64,000 nt of DNA from an uncultured Syntrophomonadaceae bacterium (GTDB lineage Bacteria > Bacillota > Dethiobacteria > DTU022): contig CAZDKY010000047.1 of assembly GCA_964506505.1 (NCBI GenBank), positions 721 to 64,720 of the forward strand. The letters run 5' to 3'. The position numbers were made by a program, and so were the translations under genes. Positions 6,300-45,859 of this stretch are shown piece by piece; position 1 is the first letter of the stretch, and each line of letters starts with the position of its first letter. The notes beneath the pieces are model-generated. The model worked only from the letters and a program-made list of their open reading frames with translations, was not told the DNA's origin and did not search any database.

Positions 6300-8255
6300 T
6301 TAGCTCTCCGGGGGGTGAATATCTTCCAGCCGCGCTGTAATCTCTTCCCACCGCTCCATGAGGGCGGAAAGGCTTTCTTTTGTTCCTTCCAGTTCACAGC
6401 CCAGTTCGGCAAGCTGTTTGTGGTCGCCGTAGCTTGCCGGGTCGGATAGAACTCTTTCCAGGCGTCCGATCTCCTCTTCCTTCTCTTCAATTTCTTTTTC
6501 CAGTCGGGCCTGTTCGTCTTTAAGACGGCGGACTCTCTTCTGCTCTTCCCGCCGGCGGCGGTGTTCTTCCTGCCGGCGCCTTTTCTCCCCCTTCTTCGCC
6601 TCTTCCTGATTTTCCTGACCCTTCTCCATCACCGGTTCGTTCTCCTGAACGGTAAGATACTCTTCAAAGGGACCCTCGAAGATACGCAGGGCACCGCCGC
6701 CCATGGCGAAGACTCTGTTAGCCAGTCCTCGCAGGAAATAGCGGTCGTGGGAAACAATAATCAGGGTGCCGGGGTAGTCGGCCAGGGCTTTTTCCAACTC
6801 TTCCATGGCCGGCAGGTCCAGGTGGCTGGTCGGTTCGTCCATCAGAAGGCAGTTGCCACTGCCCAGGGCCAGGCGGGCCAGGGCCAGGCGGCTCTTTTCT
6901 CCGCCGCTCAGGTCGCGGACCTGTTTAAAGACATCGTCGCCGCGGAAGAGATAGCGGCCGAGGTGATTGCGGGCCGCCTTGATATCAAGTTCGGACGCTT
7001 CGGTGATCGTCTCCAGCAGGGTCAGTCGGGGATCGAGGTGCTCCTGTTCCTGGGAAAAGTAGGTCACCCGGGTAGAGGGACCAAGACGGATGCAGCCGGA
7101 CGACGGTTCAATTTCAGCGGCGATCATTTTCAGGAGAGTCGATTTGCCGGCGCCGTTAGGGCCCACCAGGGCGATGCGGTCTCCCCAGCGGATCTCGAAA
7201 GAAAGGTCTTCAAAAAGGGGATCGTTGTTATAGGATTTGCCCACTTTTTCGAAGACAACGGCCAGGCGTCCGCTGCGCCCGCTGTAGTTGAGACCGGCCC
7301 GGAAGCGCCTTTCTTCAGCCGGTCGGCCGACTGCCTCCATTTTGGCCAGGCGCTTTTCGCGGCTGCGGGCCTGTCGCTTGGAGCGCTCATCGGCCTTGGC
7401 CTCGCGCACCAGGCGCTCCTCCCTCTCTTTGAGGAGCAGCTGCTTTTTGTATTCCCGGTCTTTGCTCAGACGCTCCAGCTCCAGCCGGCGGCGGTATTCG
7501 CTGTAGTTGCCACTGTAGCTTTTTACGGTTCCTTTGTCCATGGCAAAGATGTACCCCGCCACCCGGTCGAGGAAAAAGCGGTCGTGGCTGACAACGATCA
7601 AACCGCAGGTCAGGTCGCGGAGATATTTTTCCAGCCACTGCAGGGCCGAGAGATCAAGAAAGTTGGTCGGCTCGTCGAGGAGGAGCAGGTCGAGCTCCCG
7701 GAGGAGAAGGCCGGCCAGGCGGGCGCGGGTCTTCTCTCCCCCGCTGAAGGTGGAAAGGTCACGGCTTAAATCGTCTTCGCTGAAACCGAGACCGCGGGCC
7801 ACGGAGAGAAGACGGTTTTCCACCTGGTAGCCGCCCTCCGTTTCAAAGCGGGCGGTTGCAGTGGCGTATCTTTCCAGCAGTTCGGGTGGAGGGTCTCCCT
7901 GCCCGGCAGAGTGGGCGGCAATTTCCTTTTCCAGGGCGGCGATCTCCTCCTGGAGGCTGAAGATATGGGACAGTGGATGCTCGAGGTGGCGGCGCAGGGT
8001 GCCGTCGGCCAGGCGGCGCGGCTCCTGGGGCAGGTAACCGAGGCGGGTGCCGCGGGCCAGGTGGACCGCTCCGCCGTCGGGTTCCATCTCCCCGGCGATG
8101 ATTTTCAGGAGGGTGGTCTTGCCCGAGCCGTTGGGGCCGATCAGGCCGGCCTTTTCACCGGGCTGCAGCTGGAGAGTAACGGCAGAAAGGATCGTTTCGG
8201 CACCGAATGATTTATTAATCTGGGATAAATTTAGTAAGGACAAGGAATTTCCCAT
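6300..8255 (-). CDS. ABC-F family ATPase (two tandem ABC domains, no transmembrane domain; EttA/Uup/YheS-like)
   Basis: Two P-loops (GPNGSGKTTLL and GPNGAGKSTLL), two LSGGE signatures and a charged coiled-coil C-terminal tail. The track ORF starts at 8381; I place the start at the ATG at 8255 (MGNSLSLLNLSQINKSFG), typical for ABC-F proteins. Confidence 0.9.
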   Translation of the reverse strand: MGNSLSLLNLSQINKSFGAETILSAVTLQLQPGEKAGLIGPNGSGKTTLLKIIAGEMEPDGGAVHLARGTRLGYLPQEPRRLADGTLRRHLEHPLSHIFSLQEEIAALEKEIAAHSAGQGDPPPELLERYATATARFETEGGYQVENRLLSVARGLGFSEDDLSRDLSTFSGGEKTRARLAGLLLRELDLLLLDEPTNFLDLSALQWLEKYLRDLTCGLIVVSHDRFFLDRVAGYIFAMDKGTVKSYSGNYSEYRRRLELERLSKDREYKKQLLLKEREERLVREAKADERSKRQARSREKRLAKMEAVGRPAEERRFRAGLNYSGRSGRLAVVFEKVGKSYNNDPLFEDLSFEIRWGDRIALVGPNGAGKSTLLKMIAAEIEPSSGCIRLGPSTRVTYFSQEQEHLDPRLTLLETITEASELDIKAARNHLGRYLFRGDDVFKQVRDLSGGEKSRLALARLALGSGNCLLMDEPTSHLDLPAMEELEKALADYPGTLIIVSHDRYFLRGLANRVFAMGGGALRIFEGPFEEYLTVQENEPVMEKGQENQEEAKKGEKRRRQEEHRRRREEQKRVRRLKDEQARLEKEIEEKEEEIGRLERVLSDPASYGDHKQLAELGCELEGTKESLSALMERWEEITARLEDIHPPES

Positions 8256-8415
8256 CTTTCTTTTCAGGGTGCTTTTTAAGCCGTGTAAAATCTTTTTCCG
8301 GGGTGGCGCAGGCATCAGGGCATGGCTGCTTCTGCAGCTGCTGCCAGCATTAAACCCGACAGCAGGCCTGCTGTAAGACAACCTGTTAAGGATGTTTCTT
8401 TTCCTTATTTTTATT

Positions 8416-8495
8416 CCTGCCGTGACTGATAACAGCCCCGCAGCTCCTGTTCACATGTAAGATATTACAGGAATATATGAAGAGAAGTCAAACAG
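8416..8495. repeat. about 80-bp repeat element R, copy A
   Basis: About 85% identical to 12127..12206 in the same orientation. Contains the core ACATGTAAGATATTACA (inverted repeat TGTAA-N4-TTACA). Lies in the divergent promoter region between the ABC-F gene and the response regulator. Confidence 0.7.
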
Positions 8496-8756
8496 TGCCT
8501 GTATATATGGGTCATTTTATCCGGGTTACTTCAAGCAGGCGTAATTTCAATTCCCGGGATTGGGGCAATGTTGGGATTGCCGGCTGCAGCAGCAGGTAAG
8601 ATTTCTAGTTTAAACTTTTAAGTTGTGTTTAATACAGTTGTTTATTGTAACAGAAATAAGAAATTACAACTCCCACTGTAAATACCCTCCTGTAAATAAT
8701 TTCATTGCCCCTATCTTTTATTTAAGTTATCATATACAAACTAAAGGAGTGGTGTT

Positions 8757-9467
8757 ATGACACTTTTAGGCAAGATCTTGATTGCAGATGATGACCAAAA
8801 TGTTCTTGAACTGGTCAAACTATACGGTGATAGGGAAGGGTTTGATGTAATCACCATCAATGATGGTGATCAGGTGCTGGCGGCATTCGATCGGGAAAAC
8901 CCTGATATAGTAATCCTGGACTTAATGCTGCCAGGCGTGGACGGGTTGACCCTGTGCCGCAGTCTAAGATCTATCCGCATGATTCCTATTATCATGCTGA
9001 CCGCCAAGGGCGAAGAGGCAGACCGGGTGCTTGGGCTGGAAATGGGCGCCGATGATTACGTCTCCAAACCTTTCAGCCCCCGGGAACTAATGGCCAGGGT
9101 TAAAGCGGTCCTTCGCCGGGGCCATCCGGATGAAACCGTAGTGGCGGATAAGCTTACATTCCCGGGGCTGGAAATTCAGGCCGATACCCGGAAGGTTTTA
9201 GTGGACGGGCAAGAATTAAAATTTACGCCGAAGGAATTTGATCTCCTTTACTACATGGCCAGGAATCCCCTGCGTGTTTTTCCCAGAGATAAACTGCTGG
9301 AAACAGTCTGGGGCTACGACTACTATGGCGAGGAACGGACGGTAGATGTTCACGTTCGAAGATTGCGAACCAAGCTATTACCTCTCGCTCACGATTATCT
9401 GACCACAATCTGGGGGGTTGGTTATCAGTTCACTCCTCCCTCCGAAGAGGAGGATACGACATCGTGA
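8757..9467 (+). CDS. OmpR/PhoB-family response regulator
   Basis: Receiver domain (DDD...D...K) followed by a winged-helix Trans_reg_C domain (VDVHVRRLRTKL). RBS AAAGGAG. Overlaps the kinase gene by GTGA. Confidence 0.9.
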   Translation: MTLLGKILIADDDQNVLELVKLYGDREGFDVITINDGDQVLAAFDRENPDIVILDLMLPGVDGLTLCRSLRSIRMIPIIMLTAKGEEADRVLGLEMGADDYVSKPFSPRELMARVKAVLRRGHPDETVVADKLTFPGLEIQADTRKVLVDGQELKFTPKEFDLLYYMARNPLRVFPRDKLLETVWGYDYYGEERTVDVHVRRLRTKLLPLAHDYLTTIWGVGYQFTPPSEEEDTTS

Positions 9468-11035
9468 CTGATGACCGCGGGGCGAGAAAAGGTAAGCTGC
9501 AATCAGCAGCCCGGAAGATTATTGCTTGCTGGCATTCCTTCTGGCGTAAGCTGGGTGAACAATTCAATAAAAATATATACACTCGCATTATCTTTACCAA
9601 TGTAATGATCTTCACTGTCGGCTTGATAGTTTTGATGTTCATTTCAGGCTACGTAGTGAAGCATACCACCTATAATCTGGCTGAAGAAGAACTTCTGGAC
9701 AAAGCAAAGCGGGTTAATTACGCTTTCTCCGAGCTTACCGATAAACTGTGGGGAACTCCTTTAACCGAGTACACTAACGGGCAGGCTCAGGAAAGGCAGG
9801 ATTTTATTACGTTCCTGGCTGATATCTATGACACCAGGATCACCATTTTTAATACGGAAGGTATTATTAGCGATACCTCGGCCCAGCAGGAAGTAGGCCC
9901 GGGCAGCGAGGTGGAAGATAGCTATCTGGAGACATTAAATGAAGACGATATCACAGTAGTCCGCACCGAAGAAAAGGAAACGGGCCGGCAATCCCTGGCT
10001 ACAGTAGCACCCCTGGACAACGACCAGGAAGACATCGAAAACTGGATTCTTTTGGAGGGGGGACCGGTCGATGTAGAGTCTACGTTAAACCAGCTCTACC
10101 TGGTCCAGGTGGTTGGTGGGGCTGTGCTCCTGGTGATCTTGATCATCAGTTCCATTTATCTGGCTACTAACATATCCAGGCCCATCTCTCACATGGCGAC
10201 CAGTGTCAGTGATATCGGCAGCAGCAACAGCTTAATAAAGATTGAAAAAGAGTCACTGGATGAAATAAAAACCCTGTCTCAACAGTTGAACAAACTGGAA
10301 CAAAAGATGCGCAAAATCCAGTCTGAAAGCCGAAAAATGGAAGAAGACCGCTCACGGTTGTTTGCAGAGATCTCTCATGAACTGCGCACCCCGCTCACAA
10401 CGGTGCAGGGTTTTATCGAGGCCATCCGCGATGGCATGGTTCGTGAACAGGCTGTTTTTGATCGCTACCTGGAAACCATTTATCAGCAAACTGTCCATAT
10501 TAACAGGCTGGTGGATGATATTCTGGCCTTAAGCCGCCTGGAGAGCGGCAACGTTACCGTGGATAAACTGCCGCTGGATTTAAGCGCTTTGGCCCACGGG
10601 GTGGCAACTTCCCTGGAGGAAATGGCCCGTAACAAGAACAACTCGATCCGGGTAGATAATAAGACTGAAAGCGCTATGATTCTCGGAGACGCAGACCGGA
10701 TGGAACAGATTATCAAGAACCTTTTGAAAAACGCCATAAATGCTACCGAAAATGGCACAATCAGGGTCGGCGTAGAAGCCGGGCTGGATCAGGTAATCCT
10801 AACCGTCGAAGACAGCGGCGTCGGCATATCCCCTGAGGATCTGCCACACATCTGGGACCGTTTTTTTAGGGCCAGAGCCCGGCGTGGCGAGCACAGCAGT
10901 GGAAAAGGAACCGGCCTTGGTCTGGTGATTGTAAAAAAGCTGGTCCAGCTTCAGGATGGCGAAATCGAGGTAGACAGCCAGCCGGGAAGGGGAACAACTT
11001 TTAAGATCACTTTTCCACCTTATTATCAGAGTTAA
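9464..11035 (+). CDS. sensor histidine kinase (TM-HAMP-HisKA-HATPase_c)
   Basis: Two transmembrane segments, H-box EISHELRTPLTT and G-boxes GTGLGL; GTG start overlapping the response-regulator stop. Confidence 0.9.
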   Translation: MTDDRGARKGKLQSAARKIIACWHSFWRKLGEQFNKNIYTRIIFTNVMIFTVGLIVLMFISGYVVKHTTYNLAEEELLDKAKRVNYAFSELTDKLWGTPLTEYTNGQAQERQDFITFLADIYDTRITIFNTEGIISDTSAQQEVGPGSEVEDSYLETLNEDDITVVRTEEKETGRQSLATVAPLDNDQEDIENWILLEGGPVDVESTLNQLYLVQVVGGAVLLVILIISSIYLATNISRPISHMATSVSDIGSSNSLIKIEKESLDEIKTLSQQLNKLEQKMRKIQSESRKMEEDRSRLFAEISHELRTPLTTVQGFIEAIRDGMVREQAVFDRYLETIYQQTVHINRLVDDILALSRLESGNVTVDKLPLDLSALAHGVATSLEEMARNKNNSIRVDNKTESAMILGDADRMEQIIKNLLKNAINATENGTIRVGVEAGLDQVILTVEDSGVGISPEDLPHIWDRFFRARARRGEHSSGKGTGLGLVIVKKLVQLQDGEIEVDSQPGRGTTFKITFPPYYQS

Positions 11036-11071
11036 GGGCAGGCTCATTAATAATTAAAATTTGATTTTGAA

Positions 11072-11109
11072 CAGATTCCGGCAGATTCAATCCGGAATCT
11101 GTTTTTCTT
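11072..11109 (+). terminator. rho-independent terminator after the histidine kinase
   Basis: Perfect 10-bp stem CAGATTCCGG/CCGGAATCTG followed by TTTTTCTT. Confidence 0.7.
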
Positions 11110-11367
11110 AAGGGGAAATTTGATCATTTTTTGCCCTGTAACATTTTTTAATAATCTGGAAACATATTTTTATTATTTAGAAATACCAGGTTAACAAACA
11201 GCCTTTAAAATGTTTAACAGTAAGAGGGGGTTGTTAATTTGCAAGACAAGGGGGTGAGCAAATTGCAATAAATAATGGAATCCAGGCACAGAACGTTTAA
11301 AAAAATAGGCGATTCTAGATTCCCGAAAACGAGAAACTAAAACCGAAAAAATAAAGGGGGATATAAA

Positions 11368-11745
11368 ATGAGAAAGTTAACGACAGTAACTCTGGTAATG
11401 CTGTTTGCCTTTAGTTTGATGGCAGGAACAGCTCTGGCGGAAAGCAGTGAATGTCCGGCAGCGCCCGCTGTAGCAAATGAGTTATTAAGAGAAGCATTAA
11501 GAGAAGCAGGCGAAAATAACCCCTACGGCAGCGGTCGTGACGGTAGCAACTACATCAGTGATGTGGCCCACGAGATGGGCAGCCATGAAGAGGATGAAGA
11601 GAACACTGATTTCCAGGGAGTTGGGAAATGCGATCAGGAAGCATACAAAGAAGCAATAGCCGCGTTCCTTATAGAAAAGGGAGCGAATGTTGAAATCCCG
11701 GATCCTGAAGTTGAACCGGAGGCGATGCTGAACATGGATACATGA
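11368..11745 (+). CDS. small secreted acidic protein (signal peptide, 2 Cys), function unknown
   Basis: Strong RBS AAAGGGGGAT. N-terminal signal peptide MRKLTTVTLVMLFAFSLMAGTALA, then an acidic mature part; followed by a terminator. No recognised family. Confidence 0.55.
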   Translation: MRKLTTVTLVMLFAFSLMAGTALAESSECPAAPAVANELLREALREAGENNPYGSGRDGSNYISDVAHEMGSHEEDEENTDFQGVGKCDQEAYKEAIAAFLIEKGANVEIPDPEVEPEAMLNMDT

Positions 11746-11842
11746 GAAACCTGTAATGTCGCTAATCAGCTAAATGATCAGCGCTGGAAGTAAACCGGCT
11801 GATGATTTGGCTTTAGCCCACAAGAAGGAAAAAGCCCCGCGC

Positions 11843-11875
11843 TCGAAAGCGCGGGGCTTTTCTTTTGTCAGTCCC
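11843..11875 (+). terminator. rho-independent terminator
   Basis: Stem GCCCCGCGC / GCGCGGGGC with loop TCGAAA, followed by TTTTCTTTT. Confidence 0.75.
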
Positions 11876-12082
11876 TCTCAATCATGGGCGTTAACCTGGC
11901 GATGGAAATCCGCCGAGAGCTTAACATTATGAAGGAATACTTCAAACAACAGGTAACCTGGATTTAAAAATACTGCTATAGTTTATGGCACAATAAAAAC
12001 AAACAAATTGGTGGTATACGCAGGAACCGATATGCCGGGTCATATCCGCTGGTTCGGCTCACCCTGGCTTTCCTCACTGCGG

Positions 12083-12135
12083 AAGTAACGGACAACCGAA
12101 GCGATATCGACGGGCACTTAGCCCATCCTGCCGTG
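12083..12135 (-). pseudogene. remnant of the 3' end of a paralog of the CrtI-like/Cys-tail gene at 13894..15747
   Basis: About 53 bp roughly 80% identical to 13911..13969, the last ~20 codons of that gene. The minus-strand reading ...HGRMG*VPVDIASVVRYF matches ...HGKMGGIPVDIASVVGYF but carries an in-frame stop. Directly abuts repeat copy B. Confidence 0.45.
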
Positions 12136-12206
12136 ATTGATAATAGCTCCACTGCTCCGGCTCACATGTAAGATATTACACGAATATATGAAGGGAATTC
12201 AAACGG
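12127..12206. repeat. about 80-bp repeat element R, copy B
   Basis: About 85% identical to 8416..8495 in the same orientation; lies just downstream of the stop of the CrtI-like gene at 12255. Confidence 0.7.
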
Positions 12207-12254
12207 TTTGGGGGAACAACTTCATGGTACAAAAGGAAGATCACAGGCGGCGCC

Positions 12255-13892
12255 TCAATTTCGAGGGTTTTTTGCTTTCTGCTTCTGCTGAAGAACCCGG
12301 TCGGCAGCCAATTTGCCGGTAAGAATGGCCACCGGCAGGCCGGAGGGACTGAAGGACCACTGGCCGGCCTTGCATACTTCTGGAATGGCGGTTTCGACGG
12401 ATTTAGTGATACGGGCAAAGCGGTTTTCCACCGGCAGCGGCTGTTCGGTGAAGGACCAGCCGGTTATCGCTCCCCCGGAACTGCCATTGATCCGCTCGAT
12501 GGACAGGGGAGTGGAAGAAAGTCTGCTGATCACTTTCTCTTCCAGGCCCGGGTAGAGTTTTTCGGTCAGAAGTCGGGCAATATATTGTTCGCTGAATTCC
12601 TTAAATTCCCCGTAGCGGCCTTCCGCATCAATTTCTCTGACCAGTTCGTAGTCGAAGAGAGTGCTGACGATCAGACCGCTCTGTCCGGCGGGGGCCAGGC
12701 TGCCGTCGCGGACGGCGGGGCAGGAGATCTCAAAAGTGTTCAGGTCAAAAAAGCGCTCAAGCCAGGCCCGCAGGTCCTGCCAGAGGGAAGCGGGCGGGCG
12801 GCCGTCAGCGTTCTCACCGGGCCGGCTTTCTTCCCGCAGCCGGTGGAGTCCTTCGCGGCTCGGGGTATAGAAAAGATGAGGGCCACCGGTGGCGGCAAAA
12901 TAATCGGGGGGCAGGTCCACGGTCAAATAGAGGCTGAAGATTGAATCGCCCCCTCTTCCCCTGTTAATGTTTGCCTTTTCTCCGGCAACGGTTTTTTGCA
13001 CGGCAGGATCATCAATCTGTTCTGTATCGATGGCCGAGTAAAGCTTTTTCAGATCGGCGGCCCAGATCAGCTGTCCGTATTGAAATCGATCTCCGGAGAC
13101 ACTGCGGATCAGCTTCTGCTGTAGATCGACTTCTTCAATTTCCGTTTCCAGGCGGATCTCGCCGCCGTGGTCGGCTATAAAGCGGGCCATTGTGTCGACC
13201 AGTGCTCCCGTGCCTCCTATCGGGTAGTTGTAATCAAGGTAGAGGCTGAAGTAACTCAGGGCGAAGAAAGCCGGAGTTTCAGTAAAGAAATGCTGGGCAA
13301 TCATGTCAGCAAGGGAACGGTTGGCGGTCAAGCGGCTGAGGTGCTCATAGACAGGGGTCTGCATCTTCATCGCTTTGCGGATATTATACTGATATTTCAG
13401 GAGCCAGGGCAGGACTGTTTTGAAAAGGTAGCGGCGGTCATTTTTCAGGTCCCGGAAGAGCGGGTTGTCAATGCCGTAGAGAACATCCATATAGCCGATT
13501 ACTTTTCTGATCTCGGCTATAATTTTTTTAATGTCATCCCCGTTATTTGGGAAGAGATCTTTTAGGAGGCGGCTGTAATCATCAAGACTTTCCGGCCCTT
13601 TCAGCTTGATAAAACGATCTTCAATGCCCAGGGATACGGGGCTTCTGACGAACTCGACTTCCAGGCCGAGATCTCGCAGCATCGGAAAGACAATGCCCGA
13701 GTTTTCGATGGCCCGAATTCCGCCGTCAAAGGTAAAACCGTCCACGGTAAACGAGTTAACCAAACCGCCGACTTTTAAGTTTTTCTCGCAGAGCAGCACC
13801 CGCTGGCCTGCCCGGCTGAGATAGGCGGCTGCAGTCAGACCGGCCATGCCGGCTCCGACGATTACAGTGTCGTAGCTAACATCCTTGCTCAT
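12255..13892 (-). CDS. phytoene-desaturase-family (CrtI-like, COG1233) NAD(P)/FAD-dependent oxidoreductase
   Basis: FAD-binding DTVIVGAGMAGLTAAAYL...GG fingerprint and amine-oxidase/CrtI-like length. I use the ATG at 13892 (MSKDVSYDTVIVGAG) with GGGAGG 7 nt upstream, rather than the track start at 13922. Confidence 0.8.
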   Translation of the reverse strand: MSKDVSYDTVIVGAGMAGLTAAAYLSRAGQRVLLCEKNLKVGGLVNSFTVDGFTFDGGIRAIENSGIVFPMLRDLGLEVEFVRSPVSLGIEDRFIKLKGPESLDDYSRLLKDLFPNNGDDIKKIIAEIRKVIGYMDVLYGIDNPLFRDLKNDRRYLFKTVLPWLLKYQYNIRKAMKMQTPVYEHLSRLTANRSLADMIAQHFFTETPAFFALSYFSLYLDYNYPIGGTGALVDTMARFIADHGGEIRLETEIEEVDLQQKLIRSVSGDRFQYGQLIWAADLKKLYSAIDTEQIDDPAVQKTVAGEKANINRGRGGDSIFSLYLTVDLPPDYFAATGGPHLFYTPSREGLHRLREESRPGENADGRPPASLWQDLRAWLERFFDLNTFEISCPAVRDGSLAPAGQSGLIVSTLFDYELVREIDAEGRYGEFKEFSEQYIARLLTEKLYPGLEEKVISRLSSTPLSIERINGSSGGAITGWSFTEQPLPVENRFARITKSVETAIPEVCKAGQWSFSPSGLPVAILTGKLAADRVLQQKQKAKNPRN

Positions 13893-13893
13893 A

Positions 13894-15747
13894 TCAGCGC
13901 CTCCCCGGCTTAAAGTAACCAACGACAGAAGCGATATCGACGGGTATTCCGCCCATCTTGCCGTGGATGCAGGACTGCATCGCTTCGAAAATCTGCTCTT
14001 CCTGCCCGCCTTCGGACCAGAAGCGTTCAGCTATTTTAGCCGCCCCGGCAAAATTGCCCACGGTTATCCTTCTCATGATTCCCCGCACGTCGAGCTCTAC
14101 GGCATCGCGACAGCCGGGTTGCTCGCAGTATTCGCAATGCCGTGCTTTGAGCATGATCTCCCGCTTTTCAGGACTGAATTCACGGTAGAGATCTTCCTGG
14201 CGGTATGGTTTATCCACCAGGCGGACATAATTTTTCATCCCCCGCCGGTAGTTAAAGGGCTCGAGGCCTCGTTTTTTGAGAACTGCGTTAGCAGCGGAAA
14301 GACCGGAGACGGTAACCGCCGGGGTACCGGTACCCATGACCGTCGATTCACCGCAGCAAAAGAAGTTCTCCCACCCGGTGCGGGTGTGCAGGCGGTTGAG
14401 CAGATGCTGGCCCAGCATCTGTTTCGGGCCGGCCACGGCACCTCCCTTTTTCATTGTATAGCGCTCGATGGTGGCCGGGGTGGCTATTTCGGCATAGCGG
14501 ACCTTTTTGCTGAGGCCGGGAAATTTCTTTTCCAGAATGGCCAAAAGGCGTTCCTTTTCCTGCTCTTTCTGTCCGTCATATTTTTCTTTGTTGCTGCGGT
14601 CCCATTTGCCAAAATTAGGACCCATAGCCACCAGAACATGTCTGTCTTCGGGGCAGAGAGTTTGATCGTCAATGCTGAAGATGAAAATTGTTACCTCGCC
14701 TTCATCGATCTGGTCAGGGTTGCCGATTAGCATTTCGATGGGCAGGGTGCGGGCCGGGATAGCATCCCTTTCTACCAGGGCATAAAGGACCACGCTGGGA
14801 TAGGTGGGTACCTGCTTTTCCGCCCATTCTCTGAGACCAGGCTGCAGGTGGGTTTCGGGAATCAGCTTGCCGTAGAGGTTCCAGACTGTACCCGAATAGA
14901 TTATCTCACTGGCAAAGAGTTCTTCTCCGTCAACCAGTTTCACACCGGCAGGACGGCTGTCGTCAAAGAGGATTTCGGCTACCTCTTTTTTCATGAGCAT
15001 GGTACCGCTGTTTTCTTCGATCACCTTCTCCAGCTTGCCCGGTAAAAACACTGTCGAGCCGGCCGGATAGAAACTTCCCCCCACATGGTTTTCGATAAAC
15101 ATGATCGCCGCCAGGATAGCCGGGGTCTCCAGGGTGGTAGTGTAACAGTAGGTGGAAGTGAGCTTGTCAAAGAAGTTGAAAAGCTGCGGGTCGCTGAAGT
15201 ATTTTTCCAGCAGGCTGCGGGCGCTTTTATTCATGTAGCCCAGGAAGCGGGCGAAGGAAAGGGGGTGTTTCAGCAGGGCCGGCAGTGATTTAAACTTGTC
15301 TGTTTCGTCGGGGGCGGCATAGACTGGATTTTCGACCATGACGTGGCGGTACATTTTCTCAAGATCGGCGTAGAACCTTCTGATGTTTCCCTTTTCGGAA
15401 GGGAAAATTTTACCCAGTTCTTCGGCAAAATGCCTTACATTGGGCCAGAATTTTATTTTCTTGCCCCGGTAATTGATGCAGTAGAGCTGATCATGCCGAA
15501 TCATATTTATAGGTTCTTCCAGGCAATTGAAAACAAAGCGGTTAGGGTTGAAACCTTTTTCGCCAAAGCCGAAAAGCATGGCCGAACCCTGGTCGAAGAT
15601 TGTGTCACCCCGCTTGAATATACCGCAGGAACCGCCGGGGTTGTAGTTCTTATCAATTACGGCCACCTTCACCCCTCTTTTGGCCAACAGAGCCGCTGCG
15701 GTCAACCCGGAGAGACCAGCCCCGATTACGATAACATCGTACTGCAT
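13894..15747 (-). CDS. phytoene-desaturase-family oxidoreductase with a C-terminal Cys-rich (dihydroprymidine-dehydrogenase/GltD-like Fe-S) tail
   Basis: YDVIVIGAGLSGLTAAALL FAD motif. A C-terminal ~90 aa with CEYCEQPGC...C resembles the helical 4Fe-4S domain at the N-terminus of GltD/DPD. Start moved to the ATG at 15747 (RBS AAAGGGTG). The stop overlaps the start of the paralog at 13892. Confidence 0.75.
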   Translation of the reverse strand: MQYDVIVIGAGLSGLTAAALLAKRGVKVAVIDKNYNPGGSCGIFKRGDTIFDQGSAMLFGFGEKGFNPNRFVFNCLEEPINMIRHDQLYCINYRGKKIKFWPNVRHFAEELGKIFPSEKGNIRRFYADLEKMYRHVMVENPVYAAPDETDKFKSLPALLKHPLSFARFLGYMNKSARSLLEKYFSDPQLFNFFDKLTSTYCYTTTLETPAILAAIMFIENHVGGSFYPAGSTVFLPGKLEKVIEENSGTMLMKKEVAEILFDDSRPAGVKLVDGEELFASEIIYSGTVWNLYGKLIPETHLQPGLREWAEKQVPTYPSVVLYALVERDAIPARTLPIEMLIGNPDQIDEGEVTIFIFSIDDQTLCPEDRHVLVAMGPNFGKWDRSNKEKYDGQKEQEKERLLAILEKKFPGLSKKVRYAEIATPATIERYTMKKGGAVAGPKQMLGQHLLNRLHTRTGWENFFCCGESTVMGTGTPAVTVSGLSAANAVLKKRGLEPFNYRRGMKNYVRLVDKPYRQEDLYREFSPEKREIMLKARHCEYCEQPGCRDAVELDVRGIMRRITVGNFAGAAKIAERFWSEGGQEEQIFEAMQSCIHGKMGGIPVDIASVVGYFKPGRR

Positions 15748-16160
15748 TTTCTTCACCCTTTCTTCCGCATCGCCGTCCGGCAACTTTAAAAAAGATTAAT
15801 CAGGTTTCTTACAGCTCCGGGAGTTGGCGATCTGCGGAGGCAGGCTGTCCGAATATATATTGTTTATATTATATGTTATTTTCACTGTGACAACCACTCT
15901 AAATTTGCAGATATTTATAATTAAGGGCGGCGGGTGTTAGCCCAGAATTTTTTTACCCTCTTCTCATTGAATTAATATAATCCGCTTACAGTTGAAAATA
16001 TTTTTATTTTACATTAAGATTTCGTAACAGCCGCAAATCTTCAAGCAAAGAGAATGATTTTGGAGTAGTTTTGGAGGATAATATAATGAACTAATAACCG
16101 GGGCAGTGGGAAAAGTATCTGCGGAGTAAGAAACCTGCAGCAGTGGCCAGTCTGCAGAAA

Positions 16161-17282
16161 TTAGAGCAGATCCTCCACCATTCTGGCGATGCTCAGGCAG
16201 GAGGTCAGACCGGGCGATTCAATACCAATCAGGTTGATCAGGCCCGGCAGGCCGCGGCTGCTTTCTTCGGCGATCACAAAATCACGGAAAGGCTGGCCGG
16301 GCCCGGAAAGTTTACCCCTGATTCCGGCCATATCAGGTTCCAGGTCGTTCAGCTCGACAAAGGGCAGGAACGATTTGACGGCATCATAGAACTCAACAGC
16401 CCGGGCCGGATCAACCAGGTAGTCGATTTCATCAACGTAGACAGTGTTGGGTCCAAGGATTAGGCGCCCGTCAAGCATCTTGGTTACATGGATGCCAAGG
16501 CCGGTCAGCTCATGAAGGGGCGGCGGGTAAATCAGGCGCTCTACCAGGGAAGCCTTGGCCGGGGGCAGGCTGAAATATTCGCCCTTGCAGAAGTACTGGC
16601 GGTAACCGGCTTCAATGATATCGATACCGGCGGCTGCCGCCAGACTGCCAGCCTGCAGCCCGGCGCAGTTAACCACGTTTAGACATTCGAGTGTGTCCGG
16701 GCTGCCGTCCGGATTCTTATAGTTAACCCGGTAACCATCGGTGCATCGTTCGATACCCGTAACGCAGTGGCAGTAAGCAGGCATAACCCCATTCTGCAGG
16801 GCATCTTCCTCCAGGCGGGCCATTAAAGTGTGGCTGTCGATTATGCCGGTGGAGGGCGAAAAAAGGGCGCAGTCTGCTTTGATATGCGGTTCCAGACGGG
16901 TCACCATTTTACGGTCCATCATTTCCAGGTTTTCGACCCCGTTGGCGGAAGCCTGCTCAAGAAGGCTGTCAAGTGAAGCGCATTCTTCGTCTGTATTGGC
17001 GACGATTAGTTTGCCGCGTTGGTTGTAAGGAACATTTCGATCATCACAGTAGGCATAGAGCAGCTCCCGTCCCTCCAAGCAAAGACGGGCTTTGAGGGTA
17101 CCTGAAGGATAGTAGATGCCGGCGTGGATTACCTCGCTGTTGCGGCTCGATGTTTCTCGGCCAAAGTGTTCGCGCTTCTCCATGAGAACTAAAGTCCGGG
17201 CATTTTGTTGGGCGGAAAGCCTGGCGGCGACAGCCAGGCCGACTACTCCGGCCCCGATAATTACGGTGTCAACTTTATCCAT
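16161..17282 (-). CDS. FAD-dependent oxidoreductase of the L-2-hydroxyglutarate oxidase (LhgO)/glycerol-3-phosphate dehydrogenase family
   Basis: N-terminus DTVIIGAGVVGLAVAARL...SSRNSEVIHAGIYY is closely similar to the LhgO/YgaF family; 373 aa. Confidence 0.8.
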   Translation of the reverse strand: MDKVDTVIIGAGVVGLAVAARLSAQQNARTLVLMEKREHFGRETSSRNSEVIHAGIYYPSGTLKARLCLEGRELLYAYCDDRNVPYNQRGKLIVANTDEECASLDSLLEQASANGVENLEMMDRKMVTRLEPHIKADCALFSPSTGIIDSHTLMARLEEDALQNGVMPAYCHCVTGIERCTDGYRVNYKNPDGSPDTLECLNVVNCAGLQAGSLAAAAGIDIIEAGYRQYFCKGEYFSLPPAKASLVERLIYPPPLHELTGLGIHVTKMLDGRLILGPNTVYVDEIDYLVDPARAVEFYDAVKSFLPFVELNDLEPDMAGIRGKLSGPGQPFRDFVIAEESSRGLPGLINLIGIESPGLTSCLSIARMVEDLL

Positions 17283-17438: not shown

Positions 17439-20400
17439 TTAGCGGCAGGATAGGATGGCTTCACGCAGACGTGCTATTTTTTCTTTAGATCCTGCATCAT
17501 CAGGAGCCGCTGCAGCCAGGTAAAACTTAACCTTTGGTTCGGTGCCCGATGGGCGTACTGCAAACCAGGTGCTGTCGGCCAGGGTATAGTGAAGAACCGG
17601 AGAGCGCGGCAGGGTAAGAGCAAATTCTTCCCCTGTCTGCAGGTTCCAGCCTTTTCCTTGTGCATAATCCCTTTTGAAAACCAGCTGCTGCCCGGCAAAT
17701 TGGGGCGGCAGATCTTTGAAGACGTTTACGTGCCGATCGGCCTGGGAGATATCCTCCAGTTCCACGGTGAGAAGTTCGTCACGGTGGTAACCGTGGCGGC
17801 GGTGCAGCTCGTCAAGCAGATCGAAGAGGGTCTGACCCTGCTCCTTGTAATAGGCAACCATCTCGGCGATGAGCATAGAGGCGATAACCGCGTCCTTGTC
17901 GCGAACAAAGGTGCCGGTGAGATAACCGTATGATTCCTCGTATCCAAAGACGAAACTGCCAGTTCCCTTCTCTTCAAACTCCTTCATTTTATCCCCAATG
18001 AATTTGAAACCGGTCAGGGTTTCAACAACGCGCAGACCATAGTGGGCCGCTACTTTGCGGCCAAGATGCCCGGTAACGATAGTTGTCACAAGGACAGGAT
18101 CAGGCGGCATGGCTTTTCTGTCGGTAAGGCGGCTGCAGATATATTCCAGGAGCAGGGCACCCACCTGGTTGCCGTTAAGCATCCGGAGGCAGTCAGCAGC
18201 ATCGCGGGCGGCGACACCGACACGGTCACAGTCGGGGTCGGTAGCCAGCACCAGTTCAGCACCTTCCTGTTCCGCAAGGTCCAGGGCCATTTTTAGGGCA
18301 GCGGGATCTTCGGGGTTGGGGACGCTGACGGTGCTGAATTCACTGTCAGGAACCATCTGCTCTTTCACCGGGATATAGTCAACATGGGGAGCGCGGTTGA
18401 GCAAGTCCGGGATGTACACCGAACCGGTGCCATGCAGGGGAGTAAAAACTGTTTTGACCACTGCCCGCGGTTTGCTCATGGAAAGGGCAGACACTTTTTC
18501 TATATAGTGCCGGTCGAGATCCGGATCAACTTCCTGCAGTAACCCACGGCTGACTGCTTCACCACGGGAAAGCTGTTTGACGTCAGCAAAGATATCCACT
18601 TTCTTGATGGCGGCGATTACTTCGTCCACCAGAGGGCTGACTGCCTGGCCGCCGTCGGGACCATAGACCTTGTAGCCGTTGTACTGCCGCGGGTTGTGGC
18701 TGGCAGTGATCACGATGCCGGCAGCGCAGCCCAGCTCACGGGTGGCGAAGGAAAGGGCCGGAGTTGGCCTGATATCGCTGAACAGGAAGGCCCGGATACC
18801 GTTGGCAGCGAGAACCAGGGCCGCCGTTTCGGCGTAAAAAGGTGAATAACGGCGTGTGTCGCAGGCAATGGCCACGGCTGGTAGATCTTCAATGGCAAGA
18901 TCGGCGGCGGAAGCGCCGTCATCTGATTGCGACCGGACCCTGCGGTTTATATAGTCGGCCAGGCCCTGGGTAGCGCGGCCGATGACATAGCGGTTGATCC
19001 GGTTCAGGCCGGGGCCAATGATCCCACGCATGCCGCCAGTGCCAAAAACAAGTTCACTGCCGAAATGGCGCTCGATGGACTCGGGATCTTCCTGCATGGC
19101 CTGTAGTTCTTTTTTCATTTCCGGATCAAGGCCGGGCTGACCGAGCCAGCTGCGGAAGTGTCGCCGGGCCGGTGATTCTTCTTGTGACTGCGAGTTGGCA
19201 TGTGCCGGTGCGGATGAATCAATTCGTCCGTAATCGTCCTCGTAACGCTCAATATCGTCTTCCCCCAGGTAATCGCCGGTCTGCACTTCGATGAGGGCCA
19301 TCTCCTCTTCGCCACGGTTTTCAAGGCGGTGGCGCGCCTCGACAGGTATAAAGGCTCTTTCTCCCACTTTTAATGTAAACTGGCGATCGTCTATGGTGAC
19401 CAGTGCTTCGCCGCGGATAACCACCCAGTTCTCGGCCCGCCGGTGGTGGCTCTGCAGGCTGAGGCGTGAACCGGGGCTTACGTTGATCCTTTTAACCTGG
19501 TATCCGGGTCCGGTTTCCAGGGAGGTATAGCTACCCCAGGGTCGGTAGACGGTGCGGTGTTCGCGGGCTTCTACAGCACTGCTTTCTTTGAGGCGATCGA
19601 CAATTTTCTTCACATCCTGGCTGCAACTGCGGTCGCAGACCAGGAGAGCATCGTGAGTATCGACGATTACCAGATCCTTCAGGCCGATGGCTCCTGTAAG
19701 ACGGGACGGGGAAATAATCAGGCTATTTTCGGTATCCACGGATATTACCTGCCCTCGGAAGGCGTTCCCGCGGTTGTCTCGTCCGGAAAGCTGGTAGTAG
19801 GCTTCCCAGCTGCCAAGGTCACTCCAGGTAATATCCGCAGGGATAACGGTTACCTCGTCGGAACGCTCAAGGATCCCGTAATCTATGGATATTTTTTGCA
19901 GGTTGTGATAGGCTTCGTCCAGCATCTCTTTCCTGCTGTAATCGATCCGGACCAGGGTGTCGTAGATCTGAGGTAATAGTTTTCTGTACTGTTCCATAAG
20001 GGTGTCAACCCGGAAGATAAACATACCGCTGTTCCATAGAAAACGGGGATCTTTCAGGTAGGCAATGGCTTTTTCCAGATCCGGTTTTTCAACAAATTTT
20101 TCAACGCGGAAGGTTTTGTGATCAAGTTTTTCACCGCAGCAGATATAGCCGTAGCCGGTTTCCGGGTAGGTGGGACGAATGCCAAAAGTAACCAGGCCGT
20201 AGTTTTCGGCAGCCCGGGCACCGTCTTCCAGGAGAACAGCAAACTGGTCCCGGTCTGGAATGAGGTGATCGGAGGGTAACACTGCCATCACTGCATCGGG
20301 CTCCGCTTCTTTCTGCAGAAAGCGGGCGGCCAGACCGATAGCCGGGGCTGTGTTACGGGCTTCCGGTTCCTCGAGCAGGCGGATTTTTGTCAGGCCAGCC

Positions 20401-20702
20401 AGCTTCAGGCGGCGCTTGATTTCGCCCGCCTGGTCGCGGTGGGTGACTATGAGTATATTTTCTTCCGCCACCACGGTGAGGACACGGCTGATCGTTTCAC
20501 CAAGAAGAGTCACTTCACTAACCGGGTCTGAGGGAGAAGATTCTCCTTCCTCCGGATGGTTTTGAGTTCTGTTATTCTTTATCATACTTTGATCTGAAAC
20601 CGGCAGTGGAAGAAACTGCTTGGGATAAAGTTCACGGCTCAGCGGCCAGAGCCTGGTACCGCTTCCGCCGGCCAGGATTACAGTGTACAGCATAGAAATC
20701 AC
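17439..20702 (-). CDS. fusion protein: mannose-1-phosphate guanylyltransferase (ManC) + cupin mannose-6-phosphate isomerase domain + phosphomannomutase/phosphoglucomutase (1087 aa)
   Basis: N-terminus VILAGGSGTRLWPLS (nucleotidyltransferase). Middle cupin domain (VKRINVSPGSRLSLQSHHRRAENWVVIRGEALV). C-terminal half with the phospho-sugar mutase active-site loop GIVITASHNP and a PgcA/ManB-like fold. One uninterrupted ORF. Confidence 0.85.
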   Translation of the reverse strand: MISMLYTVILAGGSGTRLWPLSRELYPKQFLPLPVSDQSMIKNNRTQNHPEEGESSPSDPVSEVTLLGETISRVLTVVAEENILIVTHRDQAGEIKRRLKLAGLTKIRLLEEPEARNTAPAIGLAARFLQKEAEPDAVMAVLPSDHLIPDRDQFAVLLEDGARAAENYGLVTFGIRPTYPETGYGYICCGEKLDHKTFRVEKFVEKPDLEKAIAYLKDPRFLWNSGMFIFRVDTLMEQYRKLLPQIYDTLVRIDYSRKEMLDEAYHNLQKISIDYGILERSDEVTVIPADITWSDLGSWEAYYQLSGRDNRGNAFRGQVISVDTENSLIISPSRLTGAIGLKDLVIVDTHDALLVCDRSCSQDVKKIVDRLKESSAVEAREHRTVYRPWGSYTSLETGPGYQVKRINVSPGSRLSLQSHHRRAENWVVIRGEALVTIDDRQFTLKVGERAFIPVEARHRLENRGEEEMALIEVQTGDYLGEDDIERYEDDYGRIDSSAPAHANSQSQEESPARRHFRSWLGQPGLDPEMKKELQAMQEDPESIERHFGSELVFGTGGMRGIIGPGLNRINRYVIGRATQGLADYINRRVRSQSDDGASAADLAIEDLPAVAIACDTRRYSPFYAETAALVLAANGIRAFLFSDIRPTPALSFATRELGCAAGIVITASHNPRQYNGYKVYGPDGGQAVSPLVDEVIAAIKKVDIFADVKQLSRGEAVSRGLLQEVDPDLDRHYIEKVSALSMSKPRAVVKTVFTPLHGTGSVYIPDLLNRAPHVDYIPVKEQMVPDSEFSTVSVPNPEDPAALKMALDLAEQEGAELVLATDPDCDRVGVAARDAADCLRMLNGNQVGALLLEYICSRLTDRKAMPPDPVLVTTIVTGHLGRKVAAHYGLRVVETLTGFKFIGDKMKEFEEKGTGSFVFGYEESYGYLTGTFVRDKDAVIASMLIAEMVAYYKEQGQTLFDLLDELHRRHGYHRDELLTVELEDISQADRHVNVFKDLPPQFAGQQLVFKRDYAQGKGWNLQTGEEFALTLPRSPVLHYTLADSTWFAVRPSGTEPKVKFYLAAAAPDDAGSKEKIARLREAILSCR

Positions 20703-44470: not shown

Positions 44471-45859
44471 TTAGAATCCGGCTTTTTCTTTGAAAAGCTC
44501 GACCGAGTTTATAGTGATACCCAGCACCCGGGCTATATTTATTTTGGCTTCGATTCCCTTGGGGGCCTGGTTGAGCTCAAAAGGCCGACCCAGGTTCAAT
44601 TTCTTCCGTATTTCAAACATACGGTCCGAGTCGCTCAAATCGATGGGCTCGACACCCAGTTTTTCGGCGACATACTTTTTGGCTTCGTCAATTTTCATGC
44701 TTTTCGCCAGCTGCATCCGCAGAACCAGATCTCCGGCTGTGCGTATGCCGCTCATACATGAAGAAAGAGTATGGGCCACTTCGAGGCTGAAAGGATCGCC
44801 CACGCCTATCTACAATCCGTCGGCTTTGCCGATTTCAATCAGGGCCTTGTCGGCCCTGGTGACGGCATCAATCGGCGGAATCTCGGTCATCGGTACTCCC
44901 CCGACGCCCATGCCCACATTAATATGAAGAGGTATTTCCGCCACTTCGCTGCAGGCCTTGATAAAGGTCACCGTGCGGGCCAGGTTCCAGGGAAAAGACT
45001 TGCTGGTGTTGGTATTGACAACCGGCCCGAAGATATTGGCACCTGCTTTCTCGGCCAGCTTTACCTGCTTGTGGGGATAGAGCCCGGCAATCCTCGTGCC
45101 TGCGTATTCCAGCTTGCCGTGCATGCCGAGGACGAATTCTCCGGCAGCGCCGAACTCCACACCCAGGTTGGGATATTTCTCCTTGATCTGCTCGGTAGCC
45201 AGCAGGCTGGCCTGGTAATCGGCATCGCCGGAAGCGCCACAGGTATCAAGGTTAATCCCGTCAGCCCCGGCAGCGTACATCTCCCCGGCTACAAAAACCA
45301 TATCGCGGACGGCATGTTCTACCGCTTCTTCCTGGGCAGCCCTTGCCTCGTCGATTTTAGCCATGGGCAGCAGTTCCGACCAGTTGTCAACCGGGCCGTC
45401 CGGCTTGGTATAAAGACCGAGGTTGGGCATGGAACCGTAGAGAACCGGCATCACCGCATTCAGCTGGGCCAGTTCCATAACCGGCGTTTCGTTATGCACG
45501 ATCTGTTTGACCGCCTTGTAGCTGTAATCCATATTGCCGATATCAACCGAATCGGCGCCCAGAACTTTCTCACTGATCATCACCGAGGTGGAACGCTCCA
45601 TGGCGATATTGGCATGATAGGTCATCTTGCAACTGCCGGAATCGGAGGTGTTGACCACTTCACGACCCCGCTCGACCCCGACGATGTTTCCGGGCATGGT
45701 AACGATTTCGAAAATGTAATCCATTTCTTCCGCAGTCAGTTCGGGTATCTTCCCGCGGTCGGCGGCATCTTTAACACCCTGGAGTATATCTTCCTTGATT
45801 TCCTCCGCGCTCATATAGACGCCCGAGCCGTCGCCCATGCGTGTAAAATATTTATCCAA
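44471..45859 (-). CDS. mtbB: dimethylamine:corrinoid methyltransferase MtbB, pyrrolysine-containing, with an in-frame UAG at 44812..44810
   Basis: Track ORFs 44810..45931 and 44471..44803 are in the same frame, separated only by TAG and two codons (...IGKADGL-TAG-IGVGDPFSLEV...). The joined 462-codon product matches MtbB along its length: N-terminus (M)DKYFTRMGDGSGVY resembles the archaeal MATEYALRMGDGKRVY; GMGVGGVPM is conserved near the amber position; the UAG falls at about codon 350, against about 356 in Methanosarcina MtbB. TTG start at 45859 with AAAGGAGGG 8 nt upstream. A corrinoid-protein gene follows. Confidence 0.8.

Follow-up and report, generated by a model that had tools for sequence, protein, structure and literature searches.

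The 64,000-nucleotide (nt) stretch analyzed here (the window; positions 721 to 64,720 of contig CAZDKY010000047.1 from an uncultured Syntrophomonadaceae bacterium) carries two direct copies of a repeat, R, at 8415-8496 (R-A) and 12126-12207 (R-B), with a two-component system and a putative secreted protein (together, the cassette) between them. R-A lies upstream of a gene for an ABC-F family ATPase. We consider it likely that R is the promoter region of this ABC-F gene and that R-B is a duplicate of it, stranded when two alternative layouts of the accessory genes at this locus (the islet) were fused head to tail. The two layouts are seen in related lineages, and from them we infer the fusion event. 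The locus is thus read as an ordinary, well-documented type of rearrangement scar rather than as a mobile element or the decayed end of a gene.

The R copies were identified by repeat search and direct count. They align in the same orientation over 82 nt without gaps, are identical at 71 of 82 positions (87%; blastn E = 8e-24), and are separated by a distance of 3711 nt. The ~80-bp direct repeats of about 85% identity reported in a preliminary description of this DNA were thus confirmed. A 32-nt core was exact in R-A and had one mismatch in R-B, with zero matches in shuffled windows. The inverted repeat TGTAA-N4-TTACA, which the preliminary description had placed in the core, is intact at both copies, and these are its only exact matches in the window; a regulon search of the window for other palindrome sites retrieved just one single-mismatch site besides them. 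No third copy of R was found in the window by the core search or blastn. A metagenome-wide scan of 241 million records with the invariant 19-mer of R gave one true match, in the related locus L094, and five unrelated matches. No R-like sequence was found in 1.24 Mb of loci with distant homologues of the neighboring genes 1 and 2. Strain-level matches to the window were obtained in two NCBI bins and a JGI metagenome from Mahoney Lake; all three assemblies keep both R copies, and the strain-level variation of R-B is the same as that of its flanks.

The elements on which the reading of R depends are the following.

6300..8255, minus strand: ABC-F family ATPase of the ribosome-associated translation-factor type (Pfam ABC_tran twice, ABC_tran_Xtn, and ABC_tran_CTD)
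8256..8414, minus strand: remainder of the predicted ABC-F 5' leader, ~160 nt, varying in sequence and length among lineages in the alignments
8415..8496, minus strand: R-A, predicted native promoter of ABC-F plus the initial ~40 nt of its leader (promoter scan, orthologous single copies, and continuous flank homology)
12126..12207, minus strand: R-B, putative stranded second ABC-F promoter region, with no gene downstream before a terminator

On the minus strand of R-A, the promoter scan identified a -35 hexamer TTGACT (8491-8486), an 18-nt spacer, and a -10 hexamer TAATAT (8467-8462), oriented toward the ABC-F gene. The palindrome at 8456-8469 overlaps the -10 hexamer and the expected start site. 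R-B has the same arrangement (TTGAAT at 12202-12197, an 18-nt spacer, TAATAT at 12178-12173, and the palindrome at 12167-12180). The R-A hexamers are close to the sigma-70-type consensus (TTGACA and TATAAT, 16-18 nt apart), and the architecture is kept in the related loci L087, L094, and L096. A single R is found 100-215 nt upstream of ABC-F in L087 and its twin L097, in L094, and in L096, and its position and orientation before a gene are conserved in four lineages of this genus-level clade with different upstream neighbors; upstream of the single R stands the two-component cassette, a truncated IS256-family element, or a gene 1 remnant, depending on the lineage. In comparisons of L096 with the window, L087, and L094, a promoter core of 43-52 nt is the sole alignable non-coding stretch between coding regions.

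Among all five R copies, 46 of the 82 columns are invariant, including the 19-nt block TGTAATATCTTACATGTGA. Conservation centers on the first 46 nt (-35 to start site), where 36-45 positions are identical per pair (at least 40 in pairs without L096), and the last 36 nt are far more variable. At 3 of the 49 columns on which the four ABC-F-linked copies all agree, R-B alone differs, and one of these differences falls in the -35 box; this is weakly consistent with relaxed constraint. The flanks of R-A are orthologous on both sides, as window positions 8533-7947 are continuous with L094 and the upstream segment U is homologous to L087, and the homology of R-B to R-A, L087, and L094 is confined to ~85 nt. 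On the basis of motif, position, and conservation, we conclude that R is a predicted sigma-70-type promoter of the ABC-F gene together with the start of its leader. The palindrome over the -10 hexamer and start site is probably an operator.

The preliminary description had interpreted R as a decayed gene-terminal segment. This interpretation was abandoned: R and the CrtI-like gene in question (gene 2) have no more than a 10-nt microhomology in common, and the reading frame is not conserved in the orthologous copies. The peptide-like frame on which it drew is present in both window copies, but it diverges in L087 and has an in-frame stop in L096; the upstream in-frame TGA also exists, but it belongs to the TTGAC/TTGAA -35 hexamer. 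A selenocysteine reading of this TGA, with a selenocysteine insertion sequence element, was rejected because the TGA is in the conserved -35 hexamer, no hairpin other than the 5-bp palindrome is present, and the frame lacks conservation. R was also rejected as a structured RNA. On the plus strand, its folds were no better than shuffles (z = +0.3 and +1.3). On the minus strand, the fold of the R-A region gave z = -2.9 and that of R-B gave z = -0.6. A 4-bp hairpin was seen just past the predicted start at 8415-8455 (minus strand) and at the equivalent positions of L094, L087, and L096 (AGCU/GGCU, AGCU/AGCU, CCGG/CCGG, and GCCC/GGGC, respectively). As these hairpins differ in each lineage and lie in different registers, R provides no usable covariation, and a conserved hairpin structure at this position is too weak to call. 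Rfam 15 gave no match on R at the gathering threshold or at E<=1; just sub-threshold terminator-like matches were obtained, at 11830-11861.

The ABC-F protein scored 502.7 bits against NCBIfam NF000355 (cutoff of 380) and looks like a housekeeping factor of the Uup/YdiF type, its gene adjoining tsaE-tsaB-rimI-tsaD. Public assemblies start this gene at a TTG at 8381 (693 amino acids (aa)), and thus include 8256-8381 of the minus strand in the coding region. The orthologues in L087, L096, L088, and L089 are 639-642 aa long and start ~42 codons after the public call, which probably over-extends into the leader.

The islet and its borders in the window comprise the following features. On the minus strand, which carries all the flanking core genes, the order is the ManC/PGM fusion, DAO, gene 2, gene 1, the spacer of ~47 nt, R-B, f', D, the terminator, the convergent cassette, U, R-A, the leader, ABC-F, tsaE, and tsaB.

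8497..8756, no strand: segment U, 260 nt, the divergent intergenic region between the ABC-F and response regulator genes (blastn, alignment)
8757..9467, plus strand: OmpR-family response regulator (Pfam Response_reg and Trans_reg_C)
9464..11035, plus strand: sensor histidine kinase (Pfam HisKA and HATPase_c)
11368..11745, plus strand: acidic protein of 125 aa with a signal-peptide-like N-terminus, in no Pfam or NCBIfam family
11830..11861, both strands: bidirectional intrinsic terminator with a GC-rich stem of 14-15 bp and T runs on both strands (terminator scan)
11862..12082, minus strand: segment D, non-coding filler of 220 nt, with no significant similarity to anything tested by blastn against the relatives
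12083..12135, minus strand: f', orphan duplicate of the gene 2 end (codons ...HGRMG*VPVDIASVVRYF), containing a TAA in frame
12126..12135, minus strand: the joint, a 10-nt overlap in which the last 10 nt of R (CACGGCAGGA) are the first 10 nt of f'; gene 2 reads CACGGCAAGA there
12208..12254, minus strand: spacer of ~47 nt from the gene 1 stop to R-B; L096 has this spacer between its gene 1 remnant and R
12255..13892, minus strand: gene 1, CrtI-like flavin adenine dinucleotide-dependent oxidoreductase of 545 aa (Pfam Amino_oxidase/NAD_binding_8)
13894..15783, minus strand: gene 2, CrtI-like oxidoreductase with a C-terminal iron-sulfur-type extension (Pfam), containing f (13913-13965)
16161-17282, minus strand: DAO-family oxidoreductase

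The same interval was compared in related loci, whose four layouts, in the direction of ABC-F, are as follows.

L088 and L089 (ABC-F ~70% identical): DAO and then directly ABC-F, with a MazE/PIN pair inserted in L088
L094: DAO, 220 nt, truncated IS256-family element, 37 nt, R, ABC-F
L087 and its twin L097 (99.6%; ABC-F 86% identical): DAO, gene 2, 870 nt with a membrane open reading frame (ORF) of 162 aa, cassette, U, one R, ABC-F
L096: DAO, gene 2, gene 1 with an internal deletion of 1.46 kb, the same spacer, one R, ABC-F; no cassette

The 7.6-kb stretch from DAO to ABC-F in the window is accessory because the outgroups L088 and L089 have DAO directly before ABC-F, and none of gene 2, gene 1, the cassette, and R was found in their locus. 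In L094, homology to the window is unbroken from 8533 through R-A into ABC-F. Among the relatives, L096 lacks exactly the inter-R segment and keeps one R; therefore, the presence or absence of the cassette is bounded by R. Window positions 12343-12159 align with L096 positions 7207-7386 (74.7% over 186 nt), from the 3' end of gene 1 through the spacer into R. In L087 and L097, which carry the cassette and one R, no gene 1, R-B, or f' was found; the DNA that varies beside R-B is gene 1 together with R-B rather than the cassette. The earlier suggestion that the cassette was inserted or duplicated by recombination between R copies was therefore retained in part: a rearrangement is indeed marked here, and L096 is without exactly the inter-R segment, but L087 and L097 have the cassette along with just one R. 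R-B was seen in none of the relatives outside the species.

The borders of ABC-F are an insertion hot spot in the relatives (L088 9324-9987 and 12034-12688; L087 9033-9682; L096 9536-9943; L094 1432-2312). MazE/PIN toxin-antitoxin pairs occur on either side of ABC-F in these loci, and the truncated IS256-family element between DAO and R in L094 has inverted ends of ~29 nt.

The 53-bp gene-fragment scar at R-B noted in the preliminary description is real. Fragment f' is 83% identical (44/53) to the 3' end of gene 2 (f), contains an in-frame stop, and is equally distant from the gene 2 ends of the window and L087 (44/53 each); the distance from f to f' is 1830 nt. At the joint, the microhomology is identical at 9 of 10 positions between the parental sequences (P ~3e-5 for at least 9/10 at a random joint). 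It is located exactly at the junction, and its length falls in the range of 3-10 bp for illegitimate joints. An apparent continuation of f' into a decayed gene 1 start was seen by eye and dropped, as 67 of 500 shuffles were as good for L096 and the result was worse for the others.

In the proposed origin, layout X (gene 2, gene 1, a spacer of ~47 nt, R, and ABC-F; L096-like) and layout Y (gene 2, filler, secreted protein, kinase, regulator, U, R, and ABC-F; L087/L097-like) would have been joined by one illegitimate crossover at the 10-nt microhomology, with the end of R in X (CACGGCAGGA) joined to gene 2 of Y (CACGGCAAGA) ~70 nt before its stop. The product would read gene 2, gene 1, spacer, R-B / f', filler, cassette, U, R-A, and ABC-F, and both direct-repeat pairs (f/f', 1830 nt; R-B/R-A, 3711 nt) would arise at once from the single crossover. 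The most likely route would be the uptake of X-type DNA (the 3' part of gene 2, gene 1, the spacer, and R) from a related lineage by a Y-type chromosome. The left end would have been anchored by gene 2 homology and the right end sealed by the microhomology, which would constitute homology-facilitated illegitimate recombination (HFIR), and the old gene 2 end (f') would have decayed afterwards.

The window is read as layout X joined to layout Y because the left flank of R-B is L096-like and its right end is fused to f' at the microhomology. This left flank (the 3' end of gene 1, the spacer, and R) is contiguous in L096, whose sole R precedes ABC-F. Both configurations exist, X-type in L096 and Y-type in L087/L097, and neither is the exact parent. 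The divergence of the two repeat pairs (13% for R-A/R-B and 17% for f/f') matches the between-lineage divergence. R-A shares more positions with R-B (71/82) than with the R of L087 (66/82), which favors a join later than the split of the window and L087 lineages; a join in the window lineage after the cassette-bearing layout existed is the order favored by these comparisons. Naming the donor from an R phylogeny was attempted and rejected, as the informative sites conflict (3/3/2/2/1).

L096 and L087/L097 are sister lineages, which share a DctPQM insertion and have more similar ABC-F genes (94% between L096 and L097) than either has with the window (84%). The identity of DAO is 88% between the window and L087/L097, 86% between L087/L097 and L096, and 80% between the window and L096. 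In the first ~300 nt of gene 2, the window and L087/L097 are 93-95% identical and L087/L097 and L096 are 74-80% identical; in the remainder, the former pair drops to ~80% and the latter reaches 90-96%, followed by 80-84% in the last ~300 nt. As the X and Y layouts coexist in sister lineages and the segment identities are discordant, the lineages recombine at this locus. Gene 2 identity is thus mosaic among the lineages, with no breakpoint tied to this particular join, and a homologous anchor in gene 2 is suggested.

Several points weigh against this account. The copy number of R refers to the 64-kb window and the metagenome collection, not to the complete source genome. The promoter scan as a whole was not enriched over shuffles (8 found versus 6.1 expected), and the promoter assignment stands only on motif, position, and conservation. 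L087 and L097 are not the exact Y parent, because the filler after gene 2 differs (870 nt with the 162-aa membrane ORF versus segment D). L096 has the most divergent R copy (54-59/82) and an internally deleted gene 1, and R-B is not specifically L096-like; the X-type donor is therefore hypothetical. L096 could equally be a secondary R-B/R-A deletion of a window-like ancestor. Five short sequences cannot fix the direction of donation or the order of events relative to a tandem duplication.

In such a tandem duplication, which we regard as unlikely, an X-type chromosome would first have duplicated a unit of 1830 bp (gene 2 end to R end) between the same 10-nt microhomologies, by unequal crossing-over or replication slippage, and the cassette would later have replaced the second gene 1 copy. 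L087 and L097 would then derive from a deletion between f and f', and L096 would be ancestral or would have lost the cassette by R-B/R-A recombination. The joint and its microhomology are the same as those in the fusion of two layouts, the 1830 nt from f to f' equal one unit of gene 2 end, gene 1, spacer, and R, and L096 and L087 lack exactly the inter-R and the f-to-f' segments, respectively. However, no significant trace of another gene 1 copy was found in segment D (67 of 500 shuffles as good), the filler after gene 2 in L087 is not segment D, and more independent deletions are required. In addition, the greater similarity of R-A to R-B than to the R of L087 runs counter to the pattern expected from independently evolving copies of a duplication older than the window/L087 split. 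The reading of the preliminary description, in which R, a decayed gene end, serves for recombination or attachment and the cassette moves as a mobile module via R copies, is extremely improbable. The direct repeats do have an exact 19-nt core in common, and L096, with one R kept, is without exactly the segment between the copies. Nevertheless, among the ORFs and Pfam matches of the 3.7-kb segment and its surroundings, there was no integrase, transposase, or recombinase of another kind, and the copies are just 87% (not 100%) identical over 82 nt. R is fixed in position and orientation upstream of ABC-F in L094 and L096, never with an adjacent cassette, L087/L097 carry the cassette with a single R, and R shares 10 nt only with the CrtI-like gene, in an unconserved frame. 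With two window copies and one true metagenome match, R is not a dispersed repeat in the data searched, and its direct 82-nt copies do not have the form of an insertion sequence or a miniature inverted-repeat transposable element, for which terminal inverted repeats, a target duplication of 2-14 bp, and many dispersed copies would be expected.

The fusion of two layouts would leave R-B as a stranded duplicate, and we also considered whether R-B is still used. It is improbable, in our estimate, that R-B is still active and co-regulated with ABC-F, as a new non-coding unit that is assembled from a duplicated promoter, the dead end of a gene, and filler, that extends to the strong terminator ~335 nt downstream, and that is convergent with the cassette. 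If true, an active R-B would be a snapshot of the birth of a small RNA from a recombination scar. Slightly more doubtful still is the alternative that both R copies are functional and selected, R-B being either an active promoter for a non-coding RNA of ~340 nt ending at 11830-11861 or a second operator or decoy for the regulator of the palindrome. The intact TTGAAT-18-TAATAT and palindrome, the strong minus-strand terminator ~335 nt downstream, and the retention of R-B in three strain-level assemblies speak for it. Against these stand the private substitutions at otherwise invariant promoter positions, the absence of R-B from every relative outside the species, and strain-level variation equal to that of the flanks; the fold of the predicted transcript is also unremarkable besides the terminator (z = -2.07; 4 of 100 shuffles as good).

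Between the repeats, the preliminary description had listed a response regulator, a histidine kinase, a small secreted protein, and three terminators. The regulator and kinase were borne out by Pfam and the 125-aa protein has a signal-peptide-like N-terminus, but the count of three terminators is only loosely right, because the plus-strand terminator-like sites are two intergenic ones (11080-11103 and 11830-11861) plus one inside the kinase gene. The terminator at 11830-11861 closes the secreted-protein gene on the plus strand and read-through from gene 1 and R-B on the minus strand. Homologues of the 125-aa protein occur in only three clusters among 5.8 billion proteins, all in this clade. 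All of segment U is homologous to L087, and the 37 nt adjoining R-A (8497-8533) are also present in L094. A plus-strand promoter-like site was found by the promoter scan at 8705-8733, upstream of the regulator gene.

In the homologues of gene 2, the C-terminal extension is annotated as PF14691 (Fer4_20). Gene 2 and gene 1 form a conserved two-gene operon, always with gene 2 first, in L032, L036, L039, L041, L042, and ~15 more loci from Bacillota, Chloroflexota, Lentisphaerota, and other phyla. Synteny via gene 1 homologues was tried in a genome-collection scan and set aside: the matches had 54% identity or less, were from several phyla, and showed no R, f', or ABC-F/tsaE neighborhood, only the widespread gene 2-gene 1 operon.

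The same locus is present in two metagenome bins of Mahoney Lake ML8, LQBG01000058.1 (L001) and LQBF01000055.1 (L002). The LQBF bin, 'ML8_D', was described in the literature as a genome of Desulfobacterota Seep-SRB2 that is 12.95% contaminated. The closest ABC-F homologues bearing a source name are annotated as Bacillota or Dethiobacteria, and contig LQBF01000055.1 is therefore probably mis-binned in ML8_D.

Elsewhere in the window, the minus strand at 44713-44812 matched Rfam PYLIS_2 (the pyrrolysine insertion element of mtbB) with 47.2 bits against a gathering threshold of 36; in this organism, UAG is probably translated as pyrrolysine in a gene for a dimethylamine methyltransferase. The fusion gene beyond DAO (17439-20702, minus strand) encodes a 1087-aa protein combining mannose-1-phosphate guanylyltransferase/mannose-6-phosphate isomerase with phosphomannomutase, and the fusion is kept in L088, L089, and L097.

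The locus provides a worked example of how one microhomology-mediated crossover may stack two alternative accessory cassettes at the DAO/ABC-F hot spot, and the signature left by such stacking would be a duplicated promoter and a dead gene end. For annotation, such repeats should not be read as the ends of mobile elements. Two aspects are mildly new: a strongly conserved palindromic promoter/operator predicted for a housekeeping ABC-F gene in this Bacillota clade, and the possibility that a stranded copy fires into a non-coding unit of ~340 nt up to a bidirectional terminator. The conserved palindromic element of 19-29 nt over the -10 hexamer and start site could help identify the regulator of ABC-F.

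Resistance ABC-F genes such as vmlR, msr, and vga have attenuator leaders. Unlike in such leader-regulated genes, no conserved leader peptide or terminator/antiterminator was found here, and the leader past R is unconserved among lineages; the likeness is in the long (100-215 nt) untranslated leader downstream of the gene's own predicted promoter. Like attL/attR pairs, the R copies are direct repeats that share an exact core and enclose accessory DNA missing from a relative, and an empty site with one repeat is present in L096. Unlike attL/attR, the repeat is a predicted promoter fixed relative to ABC-F, with 87% identity over 82 nt, and the inter-R ORFs are the regulator, the kinase, and the 125-aa orphan, with no integrase among or beside them; a cassette with one R, as in L087/L097, is not predicted by an att model.

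RecA-independent tandem duplication between short direct repeats produces the classical duplication junctions of bacteria. The window resembles these in its junction of ~10 nt, its two pairs of direct repeats, and a unit of 1830 nt equal to the distance between the microhomologies. It differs in that the second unit is without gene 1 and has an unrelated two-component cassette, and the divergence fits an inter-lineage origin better. For HFIR in natural transformation, joints with 3-10 bp of microhomology and a homologous anchor on the other side are described in the primary studies of de Vries & Wackernagel 2002 and Prudhomme et al. 2002, as summarized in PMC6382021. Unlike in those cases, the event here is deduced from comparative genomics alone, and mosaic identity points to gene 2 only as a possible anchor. 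As in HFIR, one side would be joined via a short microhomology (10 bp, 9/10 identical) and the other in a homologous gene, between related but diverged lineages, and the outcome would be an insertion with short duplicated segments at its flanks.

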